Source of the DNA: a virus
Lineage: Duplodnaviria; Heunggongvirae; Uroviricota; Caudoviricetes
Length of the DNA stretch: 44,146 bases
IMG/VR virus record: IMGVR_UViG_2698536573_000002
Strand: one strand, 5' to 3'
Part shown: one piece after another, positions 1 through 44,146 of the stretch
Layout: each line of letters starts with the position of its first letter
Position numbering within the stretch: position 1 is the first letter of the stretch
The notes under the pieces: model-generated
Told to the model about the DNA's origin: nothing
Seen by the model: only the letters and a program-made list of their open reading frames with translations
The model's database searches: none
Made by a program: the position numbers and the translations under genes

Positions 1-695
1 GCGTCCTGTGCGGTGTATTTAGCGTTAGCCAGGTCATATGCTGCCTTAACAGCCTTAGGCGTCGCAGCAAGCGTTTCAGACGTGCTATTGGTGGCGCTGC
101 TAAGTTGAACAAAGCCTTTTGAGGTTAAAGTTGCATCAGGATGATTACGTGATTGCTCATGTTTCACAATGGCTTGCTTAAGCCGCTTTGCTGAAACAGC
201 AAGGGAATCATCTGTACCTGCATCAATTTCTTGTTCATTAGCAAATCTTGCAACCCCAACAACAGTTTCGGTCGCGGGAGGATTAATAAACTCAATATCA
301 CCAAATATAATATTTTTAGTATCAAGAGTCTTGATTGCTATGTCACTTGATATTAAAGCAATAGTAGATGATGCTTTATTTATTATTGCTTGTTCTTGCG
401 AGTATACAGCAAACAACGTTCCCTTATTTGTATACAATCCTATTGTATGGACAACATACTCATCTTTACTATCATCCTTCGCCGTTACATGAATTGTATC
501 AGGGGAAACAACTTTGCCACCTATTGTGGTAAGTCGTTTTATTTCGTTTGTTATATTTGTTTGTGAGGTTGACGTGACATAATATCTACCACCTAAACCA
601 ACAGAAACAATCTCAACTTTATTTGTTCCTGTTTTGTTGGCATTAACCAACTCCTGACGCCCGGCGTCAGTCATCGTAAATAATAATTTACTCAC
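1..695 (-). CDS. tail fibre protein, N-terminal constant part (partial; gene runs off window start)
   Basis: Minus-strand frame open from window edge to GTG at 693-695 with AGGA 7 nt upstream; translation ends ...HEQSRNHPDATLTSKGFVQLSSATNSTSETLAATPKAVKAAYDLANAKYTAQDA, which I recognise as the conserved N-terminal domain of P2 gpH-type fibres. Confidence 0.75.
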   Translation of the reverse strand, partial: MSKLLFTMTDAGRQELVNANKTGTNKVEIVSVGLGGRYYVTSTSQTNITNEIKRLTTIGGKVVSPDTIHVTAKDDSKDEYVVHTIGLYTNKGTLFAVYSQEQAIINKASSTIALISSDIAIKTLDTKNIIFGDIEFINPPATETVVGVARFANEQEIDAGTDDSLAVSAKRLKQAIVKHEQSRNHPDATLTSKGFVQLSSATNSTSETLAATPKAVKAAYDLANAKYTAQD

Positions 696-725: not shown

Positions 726-1307
726 TTAACACTCGCCAATTAATCGTATATAAGACACAGGCTGACAAGCACCAACAATACCGACACCACCAGAAACATT
801 GGCTGCTTGCGAAAATGTAAATAATGTTCTTGCCGACTTTGCGCTCTTGATACTTCTTAACGTATCTTCCAACATCTCTTTCGAAGGAACGGCACCATCA
901 AAAGAGTTAATCGAAGCAACAATTGAGGCTGTATATGGTTCGCCAGGTGGTGATGTTTCAAACCATTCTATTATGTTTACCTCTCCCCCCAAGCTATTTA
1001 CTACATCTTCAACCGCTGCCCTTGTACCCTTTATTCGCTTTGTTCGTATTATTGATTTGAAAACAGAACGCTTTAACGATACAGGCCAACTATCCCTCCA
1101 TGTATCAGCATTCCATTGCCAAGCTAAATGATCGAGGACAACTGAATCCAGGTTATCAACAACGCTATATATTTCTGTCTTATATATTAAATTGTTAATT
1201 GCTTGTAGTTCATCATCGATAGCTTTCGACATAGCTATCACGTTGGGATCGCTAGCTAAGTTAGGAGGTAAAACATCCAACAAGCTAACATTAAAGATAT
1301 CAGCCAT
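726..1307 (-). CDS. tail/baseplate protein, P2 gpI-like
   Basis: 193 aa ORF directly upstream of fibre and downstream of baseplate J, overlapping J stop; position and size fit gpI. Confidence 0.55.
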   Translation of the reverse strand: MADIFNVSLLDVLPPNLASDPNVIAMSKAIDDELQAINNLIYKTEIYSVVDNLDSVVLDHLAWQWNADTWRDSWPVSLKRSVFKSIIRTKRIKGTRAAVEDVVNSLGGEVNIIEWFETSPPGEPYTASIVASINSFDGAVPSKEMLEDTLRSIKSAKSARTLFTFSQAANVSGGVGIVGACQPVSYIRLIGEC

Positions 1308-2424
1308 CCTCTAACCCCGCATACTGGCAATTTATATTTCTCTCTCTGGCGACCTGTGTCTCTCCAACCACAGTAAAAACAGGACTTGATATTTCTAATC
1401 TTTTAGCCCCAGCATTTTTTAAACGTTGAATAATTTCATCTGGATTTATATCTCTTCCCATAACCGAACGTTGCCATTGTTTATACTCATCAATAGCTTT
1501 CTCAACCTCACTTTGAATTAAAGTTGTTCTGTTTTTGTCCGATGAGTTAATCCAGTATTTAATTATTATATCGTATTCAATGCTCTCTGGTTTCTTAACA
1601 AGAACTTTATCTGTGAATGGTCGAATATTAGTTGCAGAGAGAACGCTATTTATCTGCTCTAATAGTTCATCAGAAGGTATATCTCCGTTCTCTAACAAAG
1701 AACGGATTTCTACAATTCCGGGCGATGGTGTATATACATTCACATCTTTTATATTCTGATTGGCTGTTCTTGTCCAATATTTATAAGAATCCTCCGGCCC
1801 TGCTGTAGACAGTTTTTCCGGCGACAGTTTTATTCTTTCAGCATAATTATCATCTGACTCCGTATCAGCACCAGAATTAGATGTTGTTACATTCCTTACG
1901 CTGGAAACATACGGCAACGGAGTCACCAACTCATTTATTTGCCCTGGTAAAAAGCCATTCCCAGATAAACCAGGTATAACAGCATATCCTGAGACTGTAC
2001 CAACTGTTTTCCCAGCAGGTATTTCCAACAAAATATCTGTTTGGAAAATAACACCATTTCCAGTTGAAACTTGAGTGCCAGCAGGTATTGTATATATCCC
2101 CGATAATTTTGTTGACAGATTAAACTCAAATGTAGTCAAGGCAGATTGAGCTTCCAGCCTAGGCGTATCCGTCAGATAGCCTATATGGTCGAGATATTCA
2201 CCTTCACCATATGTAAGAAGGTTTTGTTTTGCAGAAAAATCGATAGCTTTTCTTTGCTGTATAATAATCTCACACAATGATAAGATGAATAATCTACGTG
2301 GATCAGCAGGTGCTAATGTTTCACCTGTTATACTCTCAAAAGCCCTGATTGAACGAGTTGTTATATCAGTCGGGTTAGAATCTGCGAAAGTAATATCTGG
2401 CAAACCACCACGCGGCAACGTCAT
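1300..2424 (-). CDS. baseplate assembly protein J
   Basis: 374 aa; order W-J-I-fibre typical of P2-like baseplate; overlapping stops/starts indicate operon. Confidence 0.7.
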   Translation of the reverse strand: MTLPRGGLPDITFADSNPTDITTRSIRAFESITGETLAPADPRRLFILSLCEIIIQQRKAIDFSAKQNLLTYGEGEYLDHIGYLTDTPRLEAQSALTTFEFNLSTKLSGIYTIPAGTQVSTGNGVIFQTDILLEIPAGKTVGTVSGYAVIPGLSGNGFLPGQINELVTPLPYVSSVRNVTTSNSGADTESDDNYAERIKLSPEKLSTAGPEDSYKYWTRTANQNIKDVNVYTPSPGIVEIRSLLENGDIPSDELLEQINSVLSATNIRPFTDKVLVKKPESIEYDIIIKYWINSSDKNRTTLIQSEVEKAIDEYKQWQRSVMGRDINPDEIIQRLKNAGAKRLEISSPVFTVVGETQVARERNINCQYAGLEDG

Positions 2425-3205: not shown

Positions 3206-3822
3206 GCCTGAGCCTCCGTTGTCGGAGCGTATTCCCCCTGAGCTGTGTGATGGTGGCCTTTAGATTTAATCCCATCAACATCTATATCACCACCAACAAC
3301 CTTAACATTCCCAGAAATTGTAGCTGCAACACCTCCAGCAGAAGATCCTTTCATTCCACCTTTGAAGGTTAGTAATCCTTCAACTGTAGCATTTCCGGTA
3401 ATGATGGTTTCTGGAGCATCAATAGTTACGGTTCCTGTAGCCTTAACGGTTACATCTCCGACAGCATCAACAAGGAGTAAATTAGATTCTCTGTCTATCT
3501 CAATACGAGTTCCGTTATTAAATCTAATTACGCGTTTATTAACAGTATTAGATGGCGGCTTCTGTGTTTCATCATAAAAACTACCAAGAATAAAACCTTG
3601 TTGCGGCCCTGCGGGATGAAAGATACACAAAACTTGCTCACCAATATCTGGCATCCAGTAATCAGCATTCTTATCTGTATTTTTCACAATAACTGATAAC
3701 TTTGCCGAAGTGACGTTATCCTGATCATCGAAAGTAACTCTTGCTGTAACATCACCATCATCAATATCAGAAACAACGCCAACTCTTATAGTCTGACGTA
3801 ATAATGTTTCTAAATCATTCAT
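3202..3822 (-). CDS. baseplate spike/assembly protein V
   Basis: 206 aa; gpV-like layout with C-terminal GNVKVVGGDIDVDG repeat-like segment and His-rich tip (GHHHT). Confidence 0.65.
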   Translation of the reverse strand: MNDLETLLRQTIRVGVVSDIDDGDVTARVTFDDQDNVTSAKLSVIVKNTDKNADYWMPDIGEQVLCIFHPAGPQQGFILGSFYDETQKPPSNTVNKRVIRFNNGTRIEIDRESNLLLVDAVGDVTVKATGTVTIDAPETIITGNATVEGLLTFKGGMKGSSAGGVAATISGNVKVVGGDIDVDGIKSKGHHHTAQGEYAPTTEAQA

Positions 3823-3824
3823 AA

Positions 3825-4826
3825 TTAATACCCATTAATTACTCTTCGGACATCAATCGAGGTGGTATAACCACTAGCCCCAATTGAATGCACAGCTTTC
3901 GATATAAGATATTTTCCAGAAAATGAACCGAATCCGTCCAGATTTATAGTTACACCAGCTACCAATCTGGTGTCTCCAACCAAAACTAAAGATCCGGTAT
4001 TTTGATATCTATTTTTAAGCCGCAAAGCAGCCTTTGCCTTACGTTTTGCTTCATCTAAATTAGCTACCAGTTTTCTTATCTTAAGATTCGCCCCTTCTTC
4101 TACGGATGGATCTACCCAAGTATACGAAAGCGACTTTCTTTTTTTAGGTACGCGATATTTGCACGTGCAACTTTTATACAAATCTGTAGATTGTGTGCTA
4201 AAGCTATATCTGATTATCTCATCAATACCTAACGTAAGCGTAGCGATAGGATCTTTTTGCTCAAACATCTCTTGAGCAAATATTATTAATTGGCTATCAG
4301 TGACCTTTAACGACACCCCTTCATCCTGGCAAAGTCGATGGAGAAATTTTAAATCGCTTTCCTCCATTTGATCTTCACGCGCATAATATGGATTACTATC
4401 ACCATCAATAAGAAACAACAGTTCAAGGTTAGCTAATTTAGCTATAGAAGTCGCTATATCTTTAAGAGTTGTTTTTTCCCATGCATTACTTTTTAAATCA
4501 CGTCTAATGCCTGATGAAACAGGAACAGAAACAGCAGTCACCTCAACAACAGAAGGTGGTCCAGAGCAAGTTATGCCATCCACCTGGAATTTCCCACACT
4601 CAAGGACGATTTGATTTATAGGCTTAAAGCTCAAATCAATAAAATCACCCTTTTTAGGTGTCCAGTCTCCAGACCATTTCCCATCATCATTTTTTAATAT
4701 AATGGAAATATCATCGACCTGACCATCTTCATTATCTGTATAAGACATTGACAAAACATCAGGTGACATATGAGCGGTAATATTTACATTCTGATATACA
4801 ACATCAAAAAGCGTTTTACGTAACAC
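3825..4826 (-). CDS. tail protein D (late control D family)
   Basis: 333 aa ORF immediately downstream of tape measure and X-like gene, as in P2 T-U-D order. Confidence 0.55.
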   Translation of the reverse strand: MLRKTLFDVVYQNVNITAHMSPDVLSMSYTDNEDGQVDDISIILKNDDGKWSGDWTPKKGDFIDLSFKPINQIVLECGKFQVDGITCSGPPSVVEVTAVSVPVSSGIRRDLKSNAWEKTTLKDIATSIAKLANLELLFLIDGDSNPYYAREDQMEESDLKFLHRLCQDEGVSLKVTDSQLIIFAQEMFEQKDPIATLTLGIDEIIRYSFSTQSTDLYKSCTCKYRVPKKRKSLSYTWVDPSVEEGANLKIRKLVANLDEAKRKAKAALRLKNRYQNTGSLVLVGDTRLVAGVTINLDGFGSFSGKYLISKAVHSIGASGYTTSIDVRRVINGY

Positions 4827-5034
4827 TATTGCGTCTCCACGGAGGCAAATTATTTACTGATATTGGCATAACCGGAGCATCAGGAACTTTAAGAATAATT
4901 CCCGCAGAAAAAAGCACCGTAAAGCGGTGCTCAGTATTAGCATCAATAAGAAGATAAGACAGGTACTCATTACCATACAACTTTAACGCGATACTATCCC
5001 ATGAGTCCCCTTGAACCGTTCTATAATCATCCAA
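4816..5034 (-). CDS. tail protein X-like (LysM-like small tail protein)
   Basis: 72 aa, overlaps tape measure stop; small LysM-like tail protein pattern. Confidence 0.45.
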   Translation of the reverse strand: MDDYRTVQGDSWDSIALKLYGNEYLSYLLIDANTEHRFTVLFSAGIILKVPDAPVMPISVNNLPPWRRNSVT

Positions 5035-7819
5035 AACTTAATCTCCGTTGTTGGAACATATGAGCACTCAATTTCTTCTCAAAATCAGAATATCCCGCAT
5101 CTAATGCTCTTTTAGCTGCCGCCTCAGTTTCCTTTGGTGAACCAGCCGGAAGATTGATTACAGGTGAATAGGTTATTCCACCAGTCACAGCGTTAACGTT
5201 CTGGCGAGGTCCAGAAGTCCCGGCGGCAGATATCCCGTGAGGTGATAAATTTGATTGCCCGAACTTGGTTGCTATTGCATTCTGTAAGCTGTTATTCCTG
5301 CTAACACCTGATGCCAGAGTAGTCATTATTGCACCACCTGACTTTGTTAGCTGTGAGAATGGACCTTTTTTCGCGTCAGAGAACGGTAAATACTCACGTA
5401 CAGAAGAAAAAACGCCTTTCACTTCATTAATTAAAGCATTTGCTTTTGATTTTATCCCAGTGATTAACGTCTCAATTATTTTTGCACCTGACTCACTCCA
5501 GTTTATTCCAGATAAATAAGCCGTTACAGATTGGAATGCTCTTATAAAGAGTCCAACTGGTGAAAAACGCATAAAAACAGATACCAGTGTATCTATGATT
5601 TTCTTTCCTGTTTCGCTCCAGTTAACACCAGAAAGATAATTTTTTACATATTTAAACGCTTTAATTAATAACGGAAGCGGAGACATCCATTTAAAAGCAC
5701 TAATTAATGTACTGTAAATCTTTACTCCTGCCGAACTCCAGTTTATATTGGAAAGATAATCCCATGCTTTACCAAACATGGATATAATCCATCCATTGAG
5801 ATCAAAGTTTAAGATAAAGTTTTTTATAGTCTCAAAAGACTTAACAGTGTAATCCTTAATAGCAGGCCAAACTTTTGATGCACATTCTTTTATTTTATCC
5901 CAATTCTGATACAACAATATACCTAACGCCACAATGGCTGATATGGCCATCTGAATCCACCCGAAAGGGGTTAGCTTTGTCGCTACAGATAAAGCCAGCA
6001 TAGCTACCCTACACGCTATAACCACACTTTTCATGGTTAGAAACGCACCTGCCGCCATCACAATCTGAGAAACAAAATTGGGGTTGTTAGCTACAAATTC
6101 ACTGATTTTTGTAATCAGCGGAACCAAAACACTAAGCGCGGCATTTAAAGCAGGTTGCAAGGCCTGACCAAAACTTAATGATGCATTGCTAGCCTGAATA
6201 CGTAATTGTTTCAATCGCTCCGCATTATCTTTCGTTATGTTGGCAAAATCGCGGTCAATAACAGCACTTCCAGCTCCAAGAGATGTTGCTTTGATTCTCT
6301 GGTATTCCTTCCAGTTTTGAATCATCGGACGAACAAAGTTCTGAACCTGCATATCGCCAAATAGCTCACCAAGTAACTTCTGATCTCCGTTCTTAGTCAT
6401 TTTCATGACAGAATGCATTGCAGCTTCGAATGGATTCTTCCCTTTTTTCTGCGCTGTTGTGACAATTTTATATAAATCTACACCGAAATTTTTCTTTGCT
6501 TTTTTTAGTGTTTCAGGGGAAAGTATTTTCGCCAAAAAGTTGTTCATATTATTAGCAGCCTCATCCGAAGTTGCAGCACCTTTGCGAGCTATCTGCAAAG
6601 CTGCCCCCATCGTCGCGGCGGCTTCTTTACCTCCCATTTTTAATGCCTGGAACTGAGCACCAAGCACAGGAAGATTTTTGGCCATATCTTTAAATTCAAA
6701 GTTTCCCTCTTTCCCTGCCTGAACCAGAATCCCCATTGCAGACTTCATTTGAGATGGATCAATCTTCAATGAGTCACTTAATGTAAATGATGCTTTCGAG
6801 ACATCGAGGATATCAGAGCCAGTAGCTGTAGCTGTTCGCCCAATAGTTAGTAGATTCGCCTGAGCCTCTTTATAATCCTGCCCAGCAGCGACAAGAAAAC
6901 CCTGAGCGGCCTGAATATCAGATGCAAACTGGTTGGTGGCCGTTCCGGTAACAAGCATCGCCTGCCCCATCGCCTGAACTTCTTCCGGCTTCATATCTGC
7001 CGTAAGACCAATCATTTTGTTTTCACGATTGAAATTTGCTGCATTGTTAGCAGCAGCAAATGCACCAGCCGCTACAGCACCAGTTTGTAATCCTGACCTT
7101 ACAAGTTGACTCTTTGCCTCACCAAGATGCTCTCGCTTCAATTCACGCTGCCTTTCCAACGCGCGGTTTAACTCCTCCTGAGCACGTTTTACTGCAAGAA
7201 CATTTTTCCGTGCTTCAGCCAACGCATTTTTATAGCTGTTAATTTTATCAATACGTTGTTTTTCTAATGCCCGGTTAAGTTCCTCCTGCTGTTTTTTCAC
7301 TTGCTGAACATTTGCTCTGGCTAAAGCCAAAGCCGTTCTGTAGCGGTTAACCTGCTCAACGCTACGGGCCTGAGCCTCACGATTACGATCAATGCTGGCT
7401 TTAAGCTCTTTCTCTCTTGAGGCCAAAGCTCTGGCAGATGTATCAGCTCCCTGATAGGCAGACTTTAAAGCGGCCAGTTCTTCACGCTGAGAACGTAGTG
7501 ATGCTCGTAAATTCGATGAATGTGTTTTTGCCTTCTCAAAGTCACGAAGCATCGCTCTGGTTGGATTGGCCGTGTTTTTTATTTGCTTCTGTAACTCTTC
7601 AACGCGAGCGGCAGCTTTATGATATTCGAGGGCAGTCTGTCCAACCTTTACTTTTACAGATTGTAGCTTTTGAATTTCCCCATGTTCTTTCGTTAATCCA
7701 GCAAGCTCGGCATTTAATTTAGCAACAGCCTGATTAGCTGTAGTAAAACTTTTGGGGAGAGAGGCGGCAACTTTGCCGCCAATTTCAAAAGCCAGCTTAA
7801 AGTTCTTATTGCTGGCCAT
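5027..7819 (-). CDS. tail tape measure protein
   Basis: 930 aa; long coiled-coil N-terminal half with KAQ/ELNRALE repeats, hydrophobic central segment, located after tail chaperone. Confidence 0.85.
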   Translation of the reverse strand: MASNKNFKLAFEIGGKVAASLPKSFTTANQAVAKLNAELAGLTKEHGEIQKLQSVKVKVGQTALEYHKAAARVEELQKQIKNTANPTRAMLRDFEKAKTHSSNLRASLRSQREELAALKSAYQGADTSARALASREKELKASIDRNREAQARSVEQVNRYRTALALARANVQQVKKQQEELNRALEKQRIDKINSYKNALAEARKNVLAVKRAQEELNRALERQRELKREHLGEAKSQLVRSGLQTGAVAAGAFAAANNAANFNRENKMIGLTADMKPEEVQAMGQAMLVTGTATNQFASDIQAAQGFLVAAGQDYKEAQANLLTIGRTATATGSDILDVSKASFTLSDSLKIDPSQMKSAMGILVQAGKEGNFEFKDMAKNLPVLGAQFQALKMGGKEAAATMGAALQIARKGAATSDEAANNMNNFLAKILSPETLKKAKKNFGVDLYKIVTTAQKKGKNPFEAAMHSVMKMTKNGDQKLLGELFGDMQVQNFVRPMIQNWKEYQRIKATSLGAGSAVIDRDFANITKDNAERLKQLRIQASNASLSFGQALQPALNAALSVLVPLITKISEFVANNPNFVSQIVMAAGAFLTMKSVVIACRVAMLALSVATKLTPFGWIQMAISAIVALGILLYQNWDKIKECASKVWPAIKDYTVKSFETIKNFILNFDLNGWIISMFGKAWDYLSNINWSSAGVKIYSTLISAFKWMSPLPLLIKAFKYVKNYLSGVNWSETGKKIIDTLVSVFMRFSPVGLFIRAFQSVTAYLSGINWSESGAKIIETLITGIKSKANALINEVKGVFSSVREYLPFSDAKKGPFSQLTKSGGAIMTTLASGVSRNNSLQNAIATKFGQSNLSPHGISAAGTSGPRQNVNAVTGGITYSPVINLPAGSPKETEAAAKRALDAGYSDFEKKLSAHMFQQRRLSFG

Positions 7820-24723: not shown

Positions 24724-24799
24724 TGGTGGCCCCTACCGGATTTGAACCGATGACCGTGCGATTATGAGTCGCCTGCTCTAACCACTAAGCTAAGGGGCC
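24724..24799 (-). tRNA. tRNA with anticodon CAT, ileX/ileY-like (tRNA-Ile2 type; Met not excluded)
   Basis: 76-nt cloverleaf: acceptor GGCCCCT/AGGGGCC, D-arm GCTTAGTGGTTAGAGC, anticodon loop CTCATAA, T-arm GGTTCAAATCC, encoded CCA. Confidence 0.8.
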
Positions 24800-35112: not shown

Positions 35113-35136
35113 ATAAAAAAGGCCCCCGAAGGGGCC
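35113..35136 (-). terminator. intrinsic terminator (minus-strand orientation)
   Basis: ggcccc-cgaa-ggggcc hairpin followed by U6 on minus strand, directly after small ORF 35143-35265. Confidence 0.5.
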
Positions 35137-35142
35137 TAATCG

Positions 35143-35265
35143 CTACTTGCTGCTAATGTTTATCGTCACATTCAGAGCGTTATCAGTAATCTTCCAACCC
35201 TCTCCATGTGGCGTAAACAAAGCCCCAGTAACAACGATAAAAATACACATGTAGTATTTTTTCAT
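35143..35265 (-). CDS. small hydrophobic peptide (40 aa)
   Basis: MKKYYMCIFIVVTGALFTPHGEGWKITDNALNVTINISSK; RBS AAGGG; own terminator. Confidence 0.35.
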   Translation of the reverse strand: MKKYYMCIFIVVTGALFTPHGEGWKITDNALNVTINISSK

Positions 35266-35655
35266 TGTGTGGCCCTTACAGGCCGTTTCACGGCATCCCC
35301 ACCGACGAAAATGACGCGAGAGCAAGCACGCTGTTTGTGCCTGCGTGGTACGGCAAGTGGATAATCCTTTCCTGAAAGTCAGTGCCCGGGTGCGAATCGG
35401 CGGAAAGGCCCCAAGCCATATTACACGTCATACCCTTCATAATGAAGGAATAAAAAACGCTTTTATTACATGAGATTACACGTAAATAAGTTAAAAACCT
35501 TCATTTTGCATGAGCTAATGAGCTAAATTTTTTTATATGAATAGTGGACTATTCACCTCAGTTAGGTAAGAATGTAGTTGCTGTTTGTGCTTGCGTGGTT
35601 GTATTAGTACAACGACGTTATGCTGAAAGGACCGCGAATCCGATCAGCACGAAAG

Positions 35656-36419: not shown

Positions 36420-36521
36420 AATGCGCCATTGGTGGACACTTTCCGAGCCGTAGCAAAATCTACGGTCGGGATTGGAACCCCGATAATCATCATGGCGCAT
36501 ACCGCGTTAGCGGTTTTTTTA
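36420..36521 (+). ncRNA. candidate small regulatory RNA (c4-like) upstream of antirepressor operon
   Basis: TTGACA at 36412-36417; terminator accgc-gtta-gcggt + T7 at 36501-36520; short elements complementary to leader near 36603-36634. Confidence 0.3.
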
Positions 36522-36685
36522 TGCGTAAAGCACTGCTACACCCAAATTATGGTGGGGCGTGCGGGGGAGTCGTAAGACTCGCCGGATTCCATGGTGACCG
36601 GTAGTTCCAACCCTGTACGTCTCACCACCCAATGATTGGAACCAGACGGTGGTGAGTATCCTTAACCTTTAAGGGAACTATCACC

Positions 36686-42349: not shown

Positions 42350-43198
42350 TTAATGTTGGAGTGATTTCCAGGTCTTTCTTAGCCTGTTATAACGCTGCTC
42401 AACGAGGGATCGTAAATATGCAAGGTCAGCACCTGGATACATGCCATCAGCAAATTCCTGGCTAACCTCTCTAGTGATTTGATGACGAAGTTCGGCCTCT
42501 CCCTTTTCCCGGACAAGACGCGCAGCTCTCTCCGCTGCTTTCTGTTTTGCCTTTATCTCTCTGGCCGTCTTCCTCTGGCGCCATACATTCTCCATCTGCT
42601 CCTGAATAACAATACGCTTATAATCAGCCTCCGTTATCGCTTTTTTAAGCCGTTCGCTATTCTTCGCATTGAAGTAATTAAGTTTCTGGCTAACCGCACG
42701 TCTCCATGCTTGTTCAGTAATACCAACGGTTTCCAGCAGTTGATCACGAATCTCTATTTTCGCTGGCCAATACTGTTTATTCACCCGATCCCAGCGACGT
42801 TCATAATCAATAAAACCTAACGCTTTCAGTTGCGACAACGCCCTTGTACAGCGCGTTATAGACTTGTTCCCAGCTTCGGATACGGTAGACAGGCCGCAAA
42901 AATCAGCCAACGCCTCAGCACTAGCCAGAACCCGCTTAGAAATGATGTTTACATGGTGCAAAATCGCAGCGATCACAGCATTAATCGCCCGACGACGATG
43001 CTCGTTTATCCGGCGCTTCCGCTCTGACGGTTGATTAACGTAGAACGCAACCTCACACGTAAGATCACGCCCATTAATGCGCTGTAAAGCATCAGATAAC
43101 ACCAGCGGCAGCTTGTGCGTATGGTGCTTTGGAGGCTGGAACTCCGGCGACAAATTACAAACGTAAGCTGAACGTAGAGACGGCATTGGTCTATCCAT
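42350..43198 (-). CDS. repA: replication initiation protein, IncFII RepA1 family
   Basis: Contains KSITRCTRALSQLKALGFIDY block resembling R100/R1 RepA1 as I recall it; ORF open to 43327, internal ATG at 43198 gives ~283 aa; upstream part is leader targeted by antisense RNA. Confidence 0.7.
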   Translation of the reverse strand: MDRPMPSLRSAYVCNLSPEFQPPKHHTHKLPLVLSDALQRINGRDLTCEVAFYVNQPSERKRRINEHRRRAINAVIAAILHHVNIISKRVLASAEALADFCGLSTVSEAGNKSITRCTRALSQLKALGFIDYERRWDRVNKQYWPAKIEIRDQLLETVGITEQAWRRAVSQKLNYFNAKNSERLKKAITEADYKRIVIQEQMENVWRQRKTAREIKAKQKAAERAARLVREKGEAELRHQITREVSQEFADGMYPGADLAYLRSLVEQRYNRLRKTWKSLQH

Positions 43199-43242
43199 AT
43201 GTTCGCTCTTGCGTCCACGGAAAACCAACGTATAATGGGAGT

Positions 43243-43320
43243 TGTCGAGGCGCCCATGGTTAGTTGTTGGTTTTCCGTGGATGTCGCAAGAAGCCCGCAG
43301 ATTTATCTGCGGGCTTTTTG
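43243..43320 (+). ncRNA. antisense RNA to repA leader (CopA/RNAI-like)
   Basis: Plus-strand promoter TTGCGT-16bp-TATAAT (43209-43236); terminator gcccgcag-atttat-ctgcgggc + T-run at 43293-43323; fully within repA leader. Confidence 0.55.
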
Positions 43321-43362
43321 TTTCCATATCTGGTCACTTTCCAACCAGACACCCACAATCAT

Positions 43363-43379
43363 AACCACGTTACGTGGTT
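43363..43379. promoter_or_regulatory. ACCAC-N5-GTGGT palindrome in repA promoter region
   Basis: aaccacgttacgtggtt, perfect, ~36 bp upstream of repA leader ORF start. Confidence 0.5.
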
Positions 43380-43508
43380 TTGAGAGAACTCTACCACAAC
43401 ACTTTCGGTCATGCACGAAGTCTCTCACTGATCGAACGATAATCCACCAGTAAAAGGATCTAAATTGGATCTCGTTTTGCGAGCATCATACTACTGGCCT
43501 AACTCCAG

Positions 43509-44063
43509 TCAATGATTCCCAGCCGGAAACCTGCGGTAAAGCGTGGATAAAGTAACATCGAAGATAATCGCTATCCGCTTACGTGAAACACCATTCGCAA
43601 TAAGCCTTCCGATCTGTTCCCATTGCTCTGGTGACAGCTTTGAGCGGCGTCCTCCGATCCTGCCGTTAGCCCTTGCCACCGCCAATCCTGCACGCGTTCT
43701 TTCAATCATATTTTCCCGCTCCATCTCTGCGACTGCACTCAGCATCGTGTAGGCAAAGCGGCCAATTGAAGTGCTAATTTTTATCCCTTCCGTAATCGAA
43801 ATAAACTCAATGTTGTTTGATAAAAAATGGTTAAGTAAATCAACAAGATGAATCAGGGAACGCCCCATTCGGTCCAGCTTCCAGACAATAACCGTATCGC
43901 CCGGCCGTAACACCTTAAGTAGCTTATCAAGTCCTGGTCGTTTTGATTTAGCACCGGATATTTTATCTTCAAAAATCCGGTCACATCCTAAACTCCTGAG
44001 CGCCTCCAGTTGTAATTCCAAATTCTGGTCAAAAGTTGACACCCTCGCATAACCATATTGCAT
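43509..44063 (-). CDS. serine recombinase, DNA invertase (Gin/Cin/Pin/Hin family)
   Basis: 184 aa; GYARVSTFDQ catalytic Ser, VWKLDRMGRS, AEMERE, GRIGGR, C-terminal HTH LSTLYRR. Confidence 0.8.
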   Translation of the reverse strand: MQYGYARVSTFDQNLELQLEALRSLGCDRIFEDKISGAKSKRPGLDKLLKVLRPGDTVIVWKLDRMGRSLIHLVDLLNHFLSNNIEFISITEGIKISTSIGRFAYTMLSAVAEMERENMIERTRAGLAVARANGRIGGRRSKLSPEQWEQIGRLIANGVSRKRIAIIFDVTLSTLYRRFPAGNH

Positions 44064-44131
44064 ACTTTCTAAACCGCGATTGTTGCTAAAAGCGGGAAAA
44101 AATATCGTTCAGACGACACAGAGGCAATTCG

Positions 44132-44146
44132 CAAAAACCTCGGTTT
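44132..44146. other. gix/cix-like invertase crossover half-site at window edge
   Basis: caaaaacctcggttt; reverse complement AAACCGAGGTTTTT matches gix core as I recall it. Confidence 0.5.

Follow-up and report, generated by a model that had tools for sequence, protein, structure and literature searches.

Why does a phage sequence stop exactly at what looks like the crossover site of a DNA invertase, with a tail-fibre gene cut off at its other end? The sequence is IMG/VR virus record IMGVR_UViG_2698536573_000002 (44,146 bp; "the window" refers to this whole stretch). It is the entire contig JPXK01000025.1 of draft assembly GCA_000773535.1, and the locus retrieved by exact-protein look-up was identical to the window end. 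Both ends of the window are thus ends of the assembled contig. Our results make it very probable that a Gin-type invertase encoded at the right edge inverts a segment of ~3.07 kb and so swaps the fibre tips of a ~48-kb phage-plasmid, and that a mixture of segment orientations ended the contig. The segment, its second crossover site and the inversion data described below come from relatives of the window, and from these we infer the content of the segment in the source strain.

We found that the rightmost ~640 bases of the window contain one minus-strand open reading frame (ORF) and that its predicted product resembles a DNA invertase (Table 1). The protein matched Pfam families Resolvase (E 9.8e-45, residues 3-135) and HTH_7 (E 4.8e-14, residues 138-181). 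It has the size and two-domain layout of the DNA invertase (Din) class, with an N-terminal catalytic domain and a C-terminal helix-turn-helix (184 aa compared with ~185-195). Its top match among solved structures was Mu Gin (3uj3; E 1.2e-61, 211 bits, ungapped over residues 2-181). In contrast, the match to gamma-delta resolvase reached only 110 bits (E 8.8e-31), and that to Tn3 resolvase was likewise ~1e-30. Protein alignment gave 54% identity to Mu Gin, 55% to P1 Cin and 58% to a second invertase allele found on a related plasmid. Y5, R7, S9, D64, R65 and R68 were invariant in the alignment with Gin and Cin; Ser9 is the nucleophile (PMC3575834). In a scan of NCBIfam the invertase reached no equivalog cut-off, and the fibre fragment at the left edge had no match at all. 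As judged by these comparisons, the predicted product is confirmed as a serine DNA invertase of the Gin/Cin type, nearer to invertases than to resolvases.

A partial gix-like site forms the right edge of the window. The 83 bases upstream of the invertase ATG, ending CAATTCGCAAAAACCTCGGTTT, are all that remains of the window on this side. Mu gixL is TTATCCAAAACC TC GGTTTACAGGAA, and on this basis we read the edge as an outer half-site, a core and the first bases of an inner half-site (Table 1). Sites of Din systems are 26 bp long (PMC3798978). Nineteen of the 26 bases are inside the window; the inner half-site has 5 of its 12 bases, and the remaining 7 lie beyond the contig end. The final 13 bases of the window are identical to the centre of Mu gixL, TTATCCAAAACCTCGGTTTACAGGAA. 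The 12-mer AAACCTCGGTTT occurs once in the 44-kb window, at the edge, and the calculated chance expectation of an exact 12-mer on both strands is ~0.005. When completed from relatives, the site is TTCGCAAAAACC TC GGTTT(A/G)CAGGAA, which matches Mu gixL at 23 of 26 positions. An earlier note on this DNA had called the gene a Gin/Cin-type invertase and placed a gix-like half-site at 44132-44146, at the window edge. Both assignments hold, and the coordinates are right for the part of the site that is present.

The window belongs to a known family of plasmids. Both of its ends matched, at 99-100%, closed circular non-mobilizable plasmids of ~48 kb, mostly from E. coli (68 and 59 records), including the 48,488-bp plasmid of ATCC 25922. 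The family has also been deposited as virions: Yersinia phage vB_YpM_39 and its siblings (three isolates) are 98.7% identical over the structural half, and in the vB_YpM_39 record repA, 'hin', two fibre/chaperone pairs, a fibre gene and gpI are contiguous. These three isolates were the only deposited phages with the same invertase allele (at 99%); other relatives of the protein in deposited phages were 3 records at 80-90% and 24 at 60-80%, with Mu and D108 at ~55%. The window was collinear with the whole of circular pTD225C4_47 (47,458 bp) at 95.6-99.5% per aligned block, mostly 98-99.5%. The sole large gap, plasmid positions 40178-44001 (~3.8 kb), joins the window's right end to its left end. 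The two window ends had no common sequence of the kind that a circular contig with the segment deleted would have. We conclude that the window, assembled from short reads, covers nearly the whole genome of a circular E. coli phage-plasmid of ~48 kb and lacks ~3.8 kb of it. The element combines a myovirus-type tail and a baseplate of the P2 type with an IncFII-type RepA and a C4 antisense RNA like that of P1.

The missing stretch contains an invertible fibre cassette in the closed relatives. Read from the left end of the window, these plasmids have first the rest of the fibre gene and a tail-fibre assembly gene, then two ORFs on the opposite strand, one for a second assembly protein and one for another fibre C-terminus, and finally the invertase. 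The segment thus consists of Sv-U and an inverted U'-S'v, where the chaperones U and U' match Caudo_TAP and sites gixL and gixR form the boundaries. Exactly two sites of the gix pattern were found in each examined relative that has the same or a 99%-identical invertase. One, gixL, is TTATCGAATACC TC GGTTT(G/A)CAGGAA, with its core at fibre codon 486. Its inverted partner is TTCCTG(T/C)AAACC GA GGTTTTTGCGAA, 77 nt upstream of the invertase ATG. The two cores were 3,047-3,074 bp apart, and the inner arms lengthen the inverted repeat to 28-83 nt. At the nucleotide level the relatives' segments were 81-97% identical to the Mu G segment and 85-89% identical to the P1 C segment; the same cassette is present in ~93-kb P1-like plasmids at 87-90%. 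The earlier note had expected an inverted second gix site in the flanking sequence and alternative fibre C-termini with chaperones just beyond the window. The relatives have both, the second site being 3.05-3.07 kb away inside the fibre gene and the Sv-U and U'-S'v pairs lying in opposite orientations.

We inverted the segment in silico in four relatives. The fibre ORF stayed open in all four (802/823, 809/818, 818/811 and 784/772 aa in the two orientations), giving products of similar length that differ in their C-terminal thirds.

Inversion of the segment occurs naturally in relatives with an invertase identical to that of the window. In two sister assemblies, L009 and L010 (invertase 100% identical to the window's), the segment is reversed. 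Their flanks differ by 3 substitutions in 6,660 nt (99.955% identity) and the segment itself by 1 in 3,115 nt (99.968%). This inversion must be very recent, because just 4 substitutions in ~9.8 kb accompany it. L002 and L004 have equal flanks and a 3,066-nt segment that is 96.2% identical in reverse, and the segment is also reversed in L023 relative to L025 and in L019 relative to L023. The inner arms of the two sites differ in a single base, G or A, six positions from the core (+6). Whenever the segment is reversed this base goes with it, but the outer half-site, core and GGTTT do not move; the exchange is therefore at the core or immediately next to it, as would be expected of a serine invertase. 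Among relatives, the inner arm of gixR has A in 8 loci and G in 5.

One plasmid of the family has a different switch. L003 (NZ_CP028194.1) has the same backbone, and its left flank is 100% identical to the window. Its positions 3229-5818 contain the second invertase allele mentioned above (186 aa) and a different segment that is more fragmented and has two additional short ORFs ('phage tail protein'). Upstream of the L003 invertase is a hix/pix-like sequence with an AA core (CAAACC AA CGTTTTT); a search of the L003-type plasmid for the inverted partner site found no 14-mer match with one mismatch or fewer. Comparison of L003 with the window indicates that entire switch cassettes are exchanged as modules.

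The position of the gene raises the question of whether the recombinase might instead be a multimer resolvase for the adjacent IncFII replicon, with a piece of a res site at the edge. The gene is directly beside repA, and multimer resolution is a frequent role of small serine recombinases encoded beside replication genes. In addition, NZ_CP032086.1 (94,204 bp) contains two copies of the region and appears dimer-like. However, the score against Gin was double that against resolvases (211 compared with 110 bits), and all 13 central bases of the edge site match Mu gix. The sole partner site in each closed relative is inverted and lies 3.05-3.07 kb away in the fibre gene, and the natural variants differ through inversion, not deletion. 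Neither a direct-repeat site nor a three-subsite res was found in the 83 nt upstream of the gene or in the rest of the 44-kb window. We therefore regard a resolvase function as extremely improbable.

We found that the contig ends where an inversion switch would be expected to stop an assembly. The two orientations of gixR agree up to and including the final base of the window, and the base that follows is the one at which they differ (G/A). A graph-based assembler would fork exactly at the window end, because reads from mixed orientations diverge at the next base. The same end point, 5 nt inside the core, was found in four independent assemblies: two ENA metagenome scaffolds, GCA_039058385.1 and the source contig itself. 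The probability of a random end at this base is ~1/44,000 per assembly. On the fibre side, other draft contigs stop within ~25-60 nt past the gixL core.

The invertase and site could also be real and the position of the contig end coincidental, the result of low coverage, trimming or a repeat shared with another prophage. The left end of the window is demonstrably due to something else, a tandem repeat, and cassettes resembling the fibre/G segment are common to P1-like plasmids and prophages at 87-90% identity; a second copy within one genome might likewise cause a branch. Against this, two metagenome scaffolds are among the four assemblies that end at one base, and that base is the last one shared by the orientations (the two inner arms have G and A at +6). 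Were a second copy the cause, the branch would fall at the same site and would still reflect a module bounded by gix. Coincidence is thus very unlikely. We take the recurrent break point as good, if indirect, evidence for activity of the switch in the sequenced cultures.

The left end of the window has a different explanation. The minus-strand frame there begins with GTG and runs for 231 codons without a stop (695-3) before leaving the window, on the same strand as the invertase, as the earlier note had described for the constant N-terminal part of a fibre gene. The fragment, which is of the P2-H type, is 99.8-100% identical to the start of genes annotated 'tail fiber protein' (802-818 aa) in closed plasmids. 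The window stops 20 nt into the first stretch that is exactly common to copies of a 132-nt repeat, whose unit encodes ...KGxVQLSSATNSTSETLAATPKAVKAAYDLANxKYTAQDATTAR... and which forms arrays at L001 1916-2390 and L002 1960-2432. The left break is at fibre codon 231, and the gixL core is at codon 486, ~760 nt further downstream. Because the left break is at codon 231 and not at gixL, the missing piece consists of ~0.76 kb of constant fibre sequence plus the ~3.07-kb invertible segment. The earlier note had named an invertible segment as a likely cause of the assembly break. This stands for the right end (four assemblies, same base); the left end is better assigned to the tandem repeat, well short of gixL. 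These observations support different causes for the two breaks, inversion on the right and the repeat on the left. The number of repeat copies varies in the family: there are ~3.6 in L001, L002 and L004 and ~2 in Yersinia phage L005, and L021 has a shorter fibre (758 aa).

These results fit the known mechanism of Gin and Hin, in which dimers bound at inverted 26-bp sites synapse, the Fis-bound enhancer activates them, and cleavage through phosphoserine is followed by 180-degree rotation of subunits (PMC3798978, PMC3575834). In the phage-plasmid, invertase dimers would bind two inverted 26-bp gix-like sites, one ~77 bp upstream of the invertase gene and the other at fibre codon 486. Ser9 would cleave at the 2-bp core (TC/GA), and strands would be exchanged through subunit rotation. 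The exchange would invert the ~3.07-kb segment that carries Sv, S'v and the chaperones U and U'. Each orientation would fuse a different receptor-binding tip to the constant N-terminal part of the fibre, and host range would alternate as in Mu and P1. The sequenced culture would have held both orientations, so that AAAAACCTCGGTTT would continue both as GCAGGAA... and as ACAGGAA..., and the assembler would have stopped after GGTTT. At the opposite end it would have stopped earlier, at the 132-nt tandem repeat in the constant part of the fibre.

The recombinational enhancer that would bind Fis is a candidate placed by position only (Table 1). The P1 record annotates the enhancer at cin nt 19-90, and the alignment with the window gene is ungapped across that stretch. 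G...C 15-mers centred on nt 29 and 78 align with Mu gin; the same stretch encodes the conserved catalytic N-terminus. Third-codon-position identity (compared with Mu gin, P1 cin and the L003-type gene) was 0.33-0.54 over nt 19-90 and 0.29-0.35 over the rest, which is not separable from coding constraint. The first candidate Fis 15-mer, GTGTCAACTTTTGAC, may resemble the proximal site of Hin. Any dependence on Fis would be by analogy with the known systems.

The invertase differs from Hin, Gin, Cin and every other characterised Din invertase in helix E, where regulatory residues are located. In the stretch at 43795-43725 (-) (residues ~101-114), the window invertase has F103-A104-Y105-T106-M107-L108-S109-A110-V111 and Gin has F-F-F-H-V-M-G-A-L. 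The relevant positions are A104, Y105, T106, L108 and V111, equivalent to F105, F106, H107, M109 and L112 of Hin and to F104, F105, H106, M108 and L111 of Gin; the pocket residue F87 is conserved. The 'phenylalanine switch' residues of Hin are thus absent from the window invertase, and these are a regulatory rather than a class-defining feature. The non-conserved helix E marks a divergent branch and is compatible with membership in the Din class. In Hin, single substitutions of this kind either inactivate or hyperactivate the enzyme (PMC4513852). F105A is inactive or toxic, F106Y has ~10% activity, and M109L gave marginal, tentatively scored inversion with poor growth (PMC4513852). Many substitutions at Hin 105 and 109 relieve the dependence on Fis (PMC4513852). 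Resolvases naturally have small aliphatic residues at the equivalent positions (PMC4513852).

These differences might mean that the switch is a relic, in which the invertase is inactive because of its helix E and the inversions are old or were made in trans by other Din invertases. A104, Y105 and L108 occupy positions where the matching single substitutions cripple Hin (PMC4513852 Tables 1-2). On the other hand, the ORF is intact and 99-100% conserved across many plasmids, and all catalytic residues are kept. The L009/L010 inversion is very recent, both orientations are common among relatives (the A and G arms of gixR counted above), and the recurrent assembly breaks imply heterogeneity within cultures. 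As resolvases carry small aliphatic residues at the equivalent positions (PMC4513852), the helix-E residues may have evolved together. A relic is therefore most improbable. An active switch remains our preferred reading, and because the element evidently inverts, the helix-E residues have presumably co-evolved in this protein.

A more speculative suggestion is that this is a naturally rewired Din invertase, with resolvase-like A, Y, T, L and V at the positions that keep Hin, Gin and Cin locked as inactive dimers dependent on Fis and the enhancer, and that it evidently still inverts its segment but is gated differently. We consider this unlikely. If it were true, the enzyme might be less dependent on Fis or independent of it, or might switch at a rate suited to a multicopy or plasmid lifestyle beside repA.

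Several points weigh against a working inversion switch in the source strain as the explanation of the contig end. First, the invertible segment of that strain lies outside the window, and its presence, its content and its mixed orientation are deduced from relatives. The segment is mosaic among these (85-97% identity, with differing Sv types), which are therefore a poor guide to the actual fibre tips of the source strain. Second, Din invertases are mutually interchangeable, and in principle another such enzyme of the host, for example e14 Pin or the Cin of a co-resident P1-like plasmid, could have acted in trans to produce the inversions seen in relatives. Third, the residues that gate Hin are not conserved in helix E; therefore, activity and Fis control cannot be assumed to equal those of Hin or Gin. 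Fourth, a simple scan of 43200-44146 for a sigma-70 consensus found none upstream of the invertase. Finally, the left end is only 20 nt into the repeat, which would fit a small k-mer or an older assembler.

The system is most like the G segment of Mu. The order and orientations gixL-Sv-U-U'-S'v-gixR-gin are the same, and in both the right-hand site directly precedes the start of the invertase gene, whose transcription leads away from the segment. The invertases are 54% identical, the core (TC/GA) and the 13 central bases of the site are identical, the relatives' segments are 81-97% identical to that of Mu, and the segment size agrees with the ~3 kb reported for Mu (PMC3575834). There are also differences. 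The window element is a plasmid prophage with an IncFII RepA, whereas Mu is a transposable phage. The outer half-sites have TTCGCA and TTATCG here but TTATCC in Mu. The constant part of the fibre has 485 codons here, including a P2-H-like N-terminus and the 44-aa tandem repeat, compared with ~170 in Mu. Helix E has the pattern A-Y-T-x-L-x-x-V rather than the F-F-H-x-M-x-x-L of Gin. Unlike Mu, the window element has no mom/com module beside the invertase.

The element shares other features with P1 and its C segment. P1 is also a plasmid prophage, Cin is 55% identical to the window protein, and the segments are 85-89% identical. The same cassette is found in ~93-kb P1-like plasmids (87-90%), and the window contains a P1-type C4 antisense RNA. 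In contrast to the window, where the site is upstream of the 5' end of the invertase gene, P1 has cin on the other side, with cixL overlapping the cin 3' end. The P1 core is TT, and its replicon and virion modules differ.

Hin/hix of Salmonella and Pin of e14 are of the same subclass, with 26-bp sites, an invertasome controlled by Fis and an enhancer, and a serine nucleophile (PMC3798978). Hin flips a promoter of flagellin genes rather than fibre coding sequence, and its F105, F106, H107 and M109 are not conserved in the window invertase. Min of p15B belongs to a phage-plasmid in which a Din invertase acts on tail-fibre gene segments through six crossover sites. In contrast to p15B, each of the relatives examined here has only two sites. 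In the literature we found no description of an invertible segment in this phage-plasmid family; papers on P1-like and pO111 plasmids treat other plasmids.

Table 1. Positions of the features discussed in the text within the 44,146-bp window
Feature	Position	Strand	Basis
Partial gixR-like site: outer half-site TTCGCAAAAACC (44128-44139), core TC (44140-44141), inner bases GGTTT (44142-44146)	44128..44146		Sequence and relatives
Leader between site and invertase start; promoter presumed here or across the site	44064..44127	-	Layout like Mu gixR-gin, with site ~77 nt upstream of ATG
Candidate recombinational enhancer (Fis region), placed by position only	43974..44045	-	Gene nt 19-90, as in the P1 cin enhancer annotation
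DNA invertase gene, Gin/Cin/Hin-type small serine recombinase, 184 aa	43509..44063	-	ORF, Pfam and alignment
IncFII-type RepA replication initiator, directly downstream of invertase	42350..43327	-	Pfam IncFII_repA, E 1.3e-43; repA in relatives
Tail-fibre gene 5' part, codons 1-231, GTG start at 695; constant 'Sc' region, cut by contig end	1..695	-	Open frame
Baseplate genes directly upstream of fibre: P2 gpI-like (726-1307) and Baseplate_J (1300-2424)	726..2424	-	ORFs and Pfam
Start of 132-nt (44-aa) tandem repeat array in fibre gene; assigned cause of left break	1..119	-	Repeats in L001 and L002

Several other features of the window and its relatives were observed. Near the 5' end of repA (43190-43327) is a 16-nt perfect inverted repeat, TCCACGGAAAACCAAC / GTTGGTTTTCCGTGGA (~43214-43284), followed on the + strand by a GC-rich hairpin and T-run (~43289-43322). 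The hairpin and T-run would act as a terminator for a transcript running antisense to the repA leader, much as in the CopA control of IncFII plasmids; Rfam gave no CopA match. RepA is annotated in relatives as 278-282 aa or 322-326 aa, and its true start is uncertain. Rfam isrK (70 bits) and, directly after it, C4 antisense RNA (84 bits) were found at 36447-36632 (+). C4 is the antisense system of P1/P7-type immunity I, here beside a P2/Mu-like tail module, and in relatives genes like Rha/ORF6N antirepressors are near the isrK/C4 region. A full-length match to the small RNA ryfA (135 bits; gathering score 80) is at 35115-35413 (-). A tRNA-Met (CAT) gene is present at 24724-24799 (-), between the structural region and the early region; tRNA-Met genes from unrelated phages of Pectobacterium, Klebsiella and Salmonella share 85-88% identity with it.

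Two relatives have unusual structures. NZ_CP032086.1 (L023) has two copies of both window ends and ~2x the unit length, probably representing a plasmid dimer that is genuine or was created during assembly. In L025, an insertion sequence with a transposase ORF of the rve family (404 aa) interrupts the baseplate spike (gpV-like) gene at 1330-2543, and this copy is probably a defective phage kept only as a plasmid.

Elements of the SSU5 supergroup are ~100 kb. Assignment of the window to the pSLy3 group of phage-plasmids was rejected: that group belongs to the SSU5 supergroup, alongside groups such as SSU5_pHCM2 and pMT1 (PMC7969092). Its elements are far larger than the window element.

Taken together, our results describe a classical tail-fibre switch driven by a Din invertase in a known, publicly sequenced family of phage-plasmids. 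It is an ordinary system, in which the divergent helix E is the sole mildly novel aspect and provides a natural variant useful for work on the gating of serine invertases. The switch explains why draft assemblies of these elements repeatedly break at one base and lack the ~3-4 kb that would contain the determinants of host range, and the contig break is itself indirect evidence of an active switch in the sequenced culture. The finding adds another fibre switch of the Mu/P1 type, in the common and little-described ~48-kb phage-plasmids of E. coli (59-68 closed plasmid records and three virion isolates).

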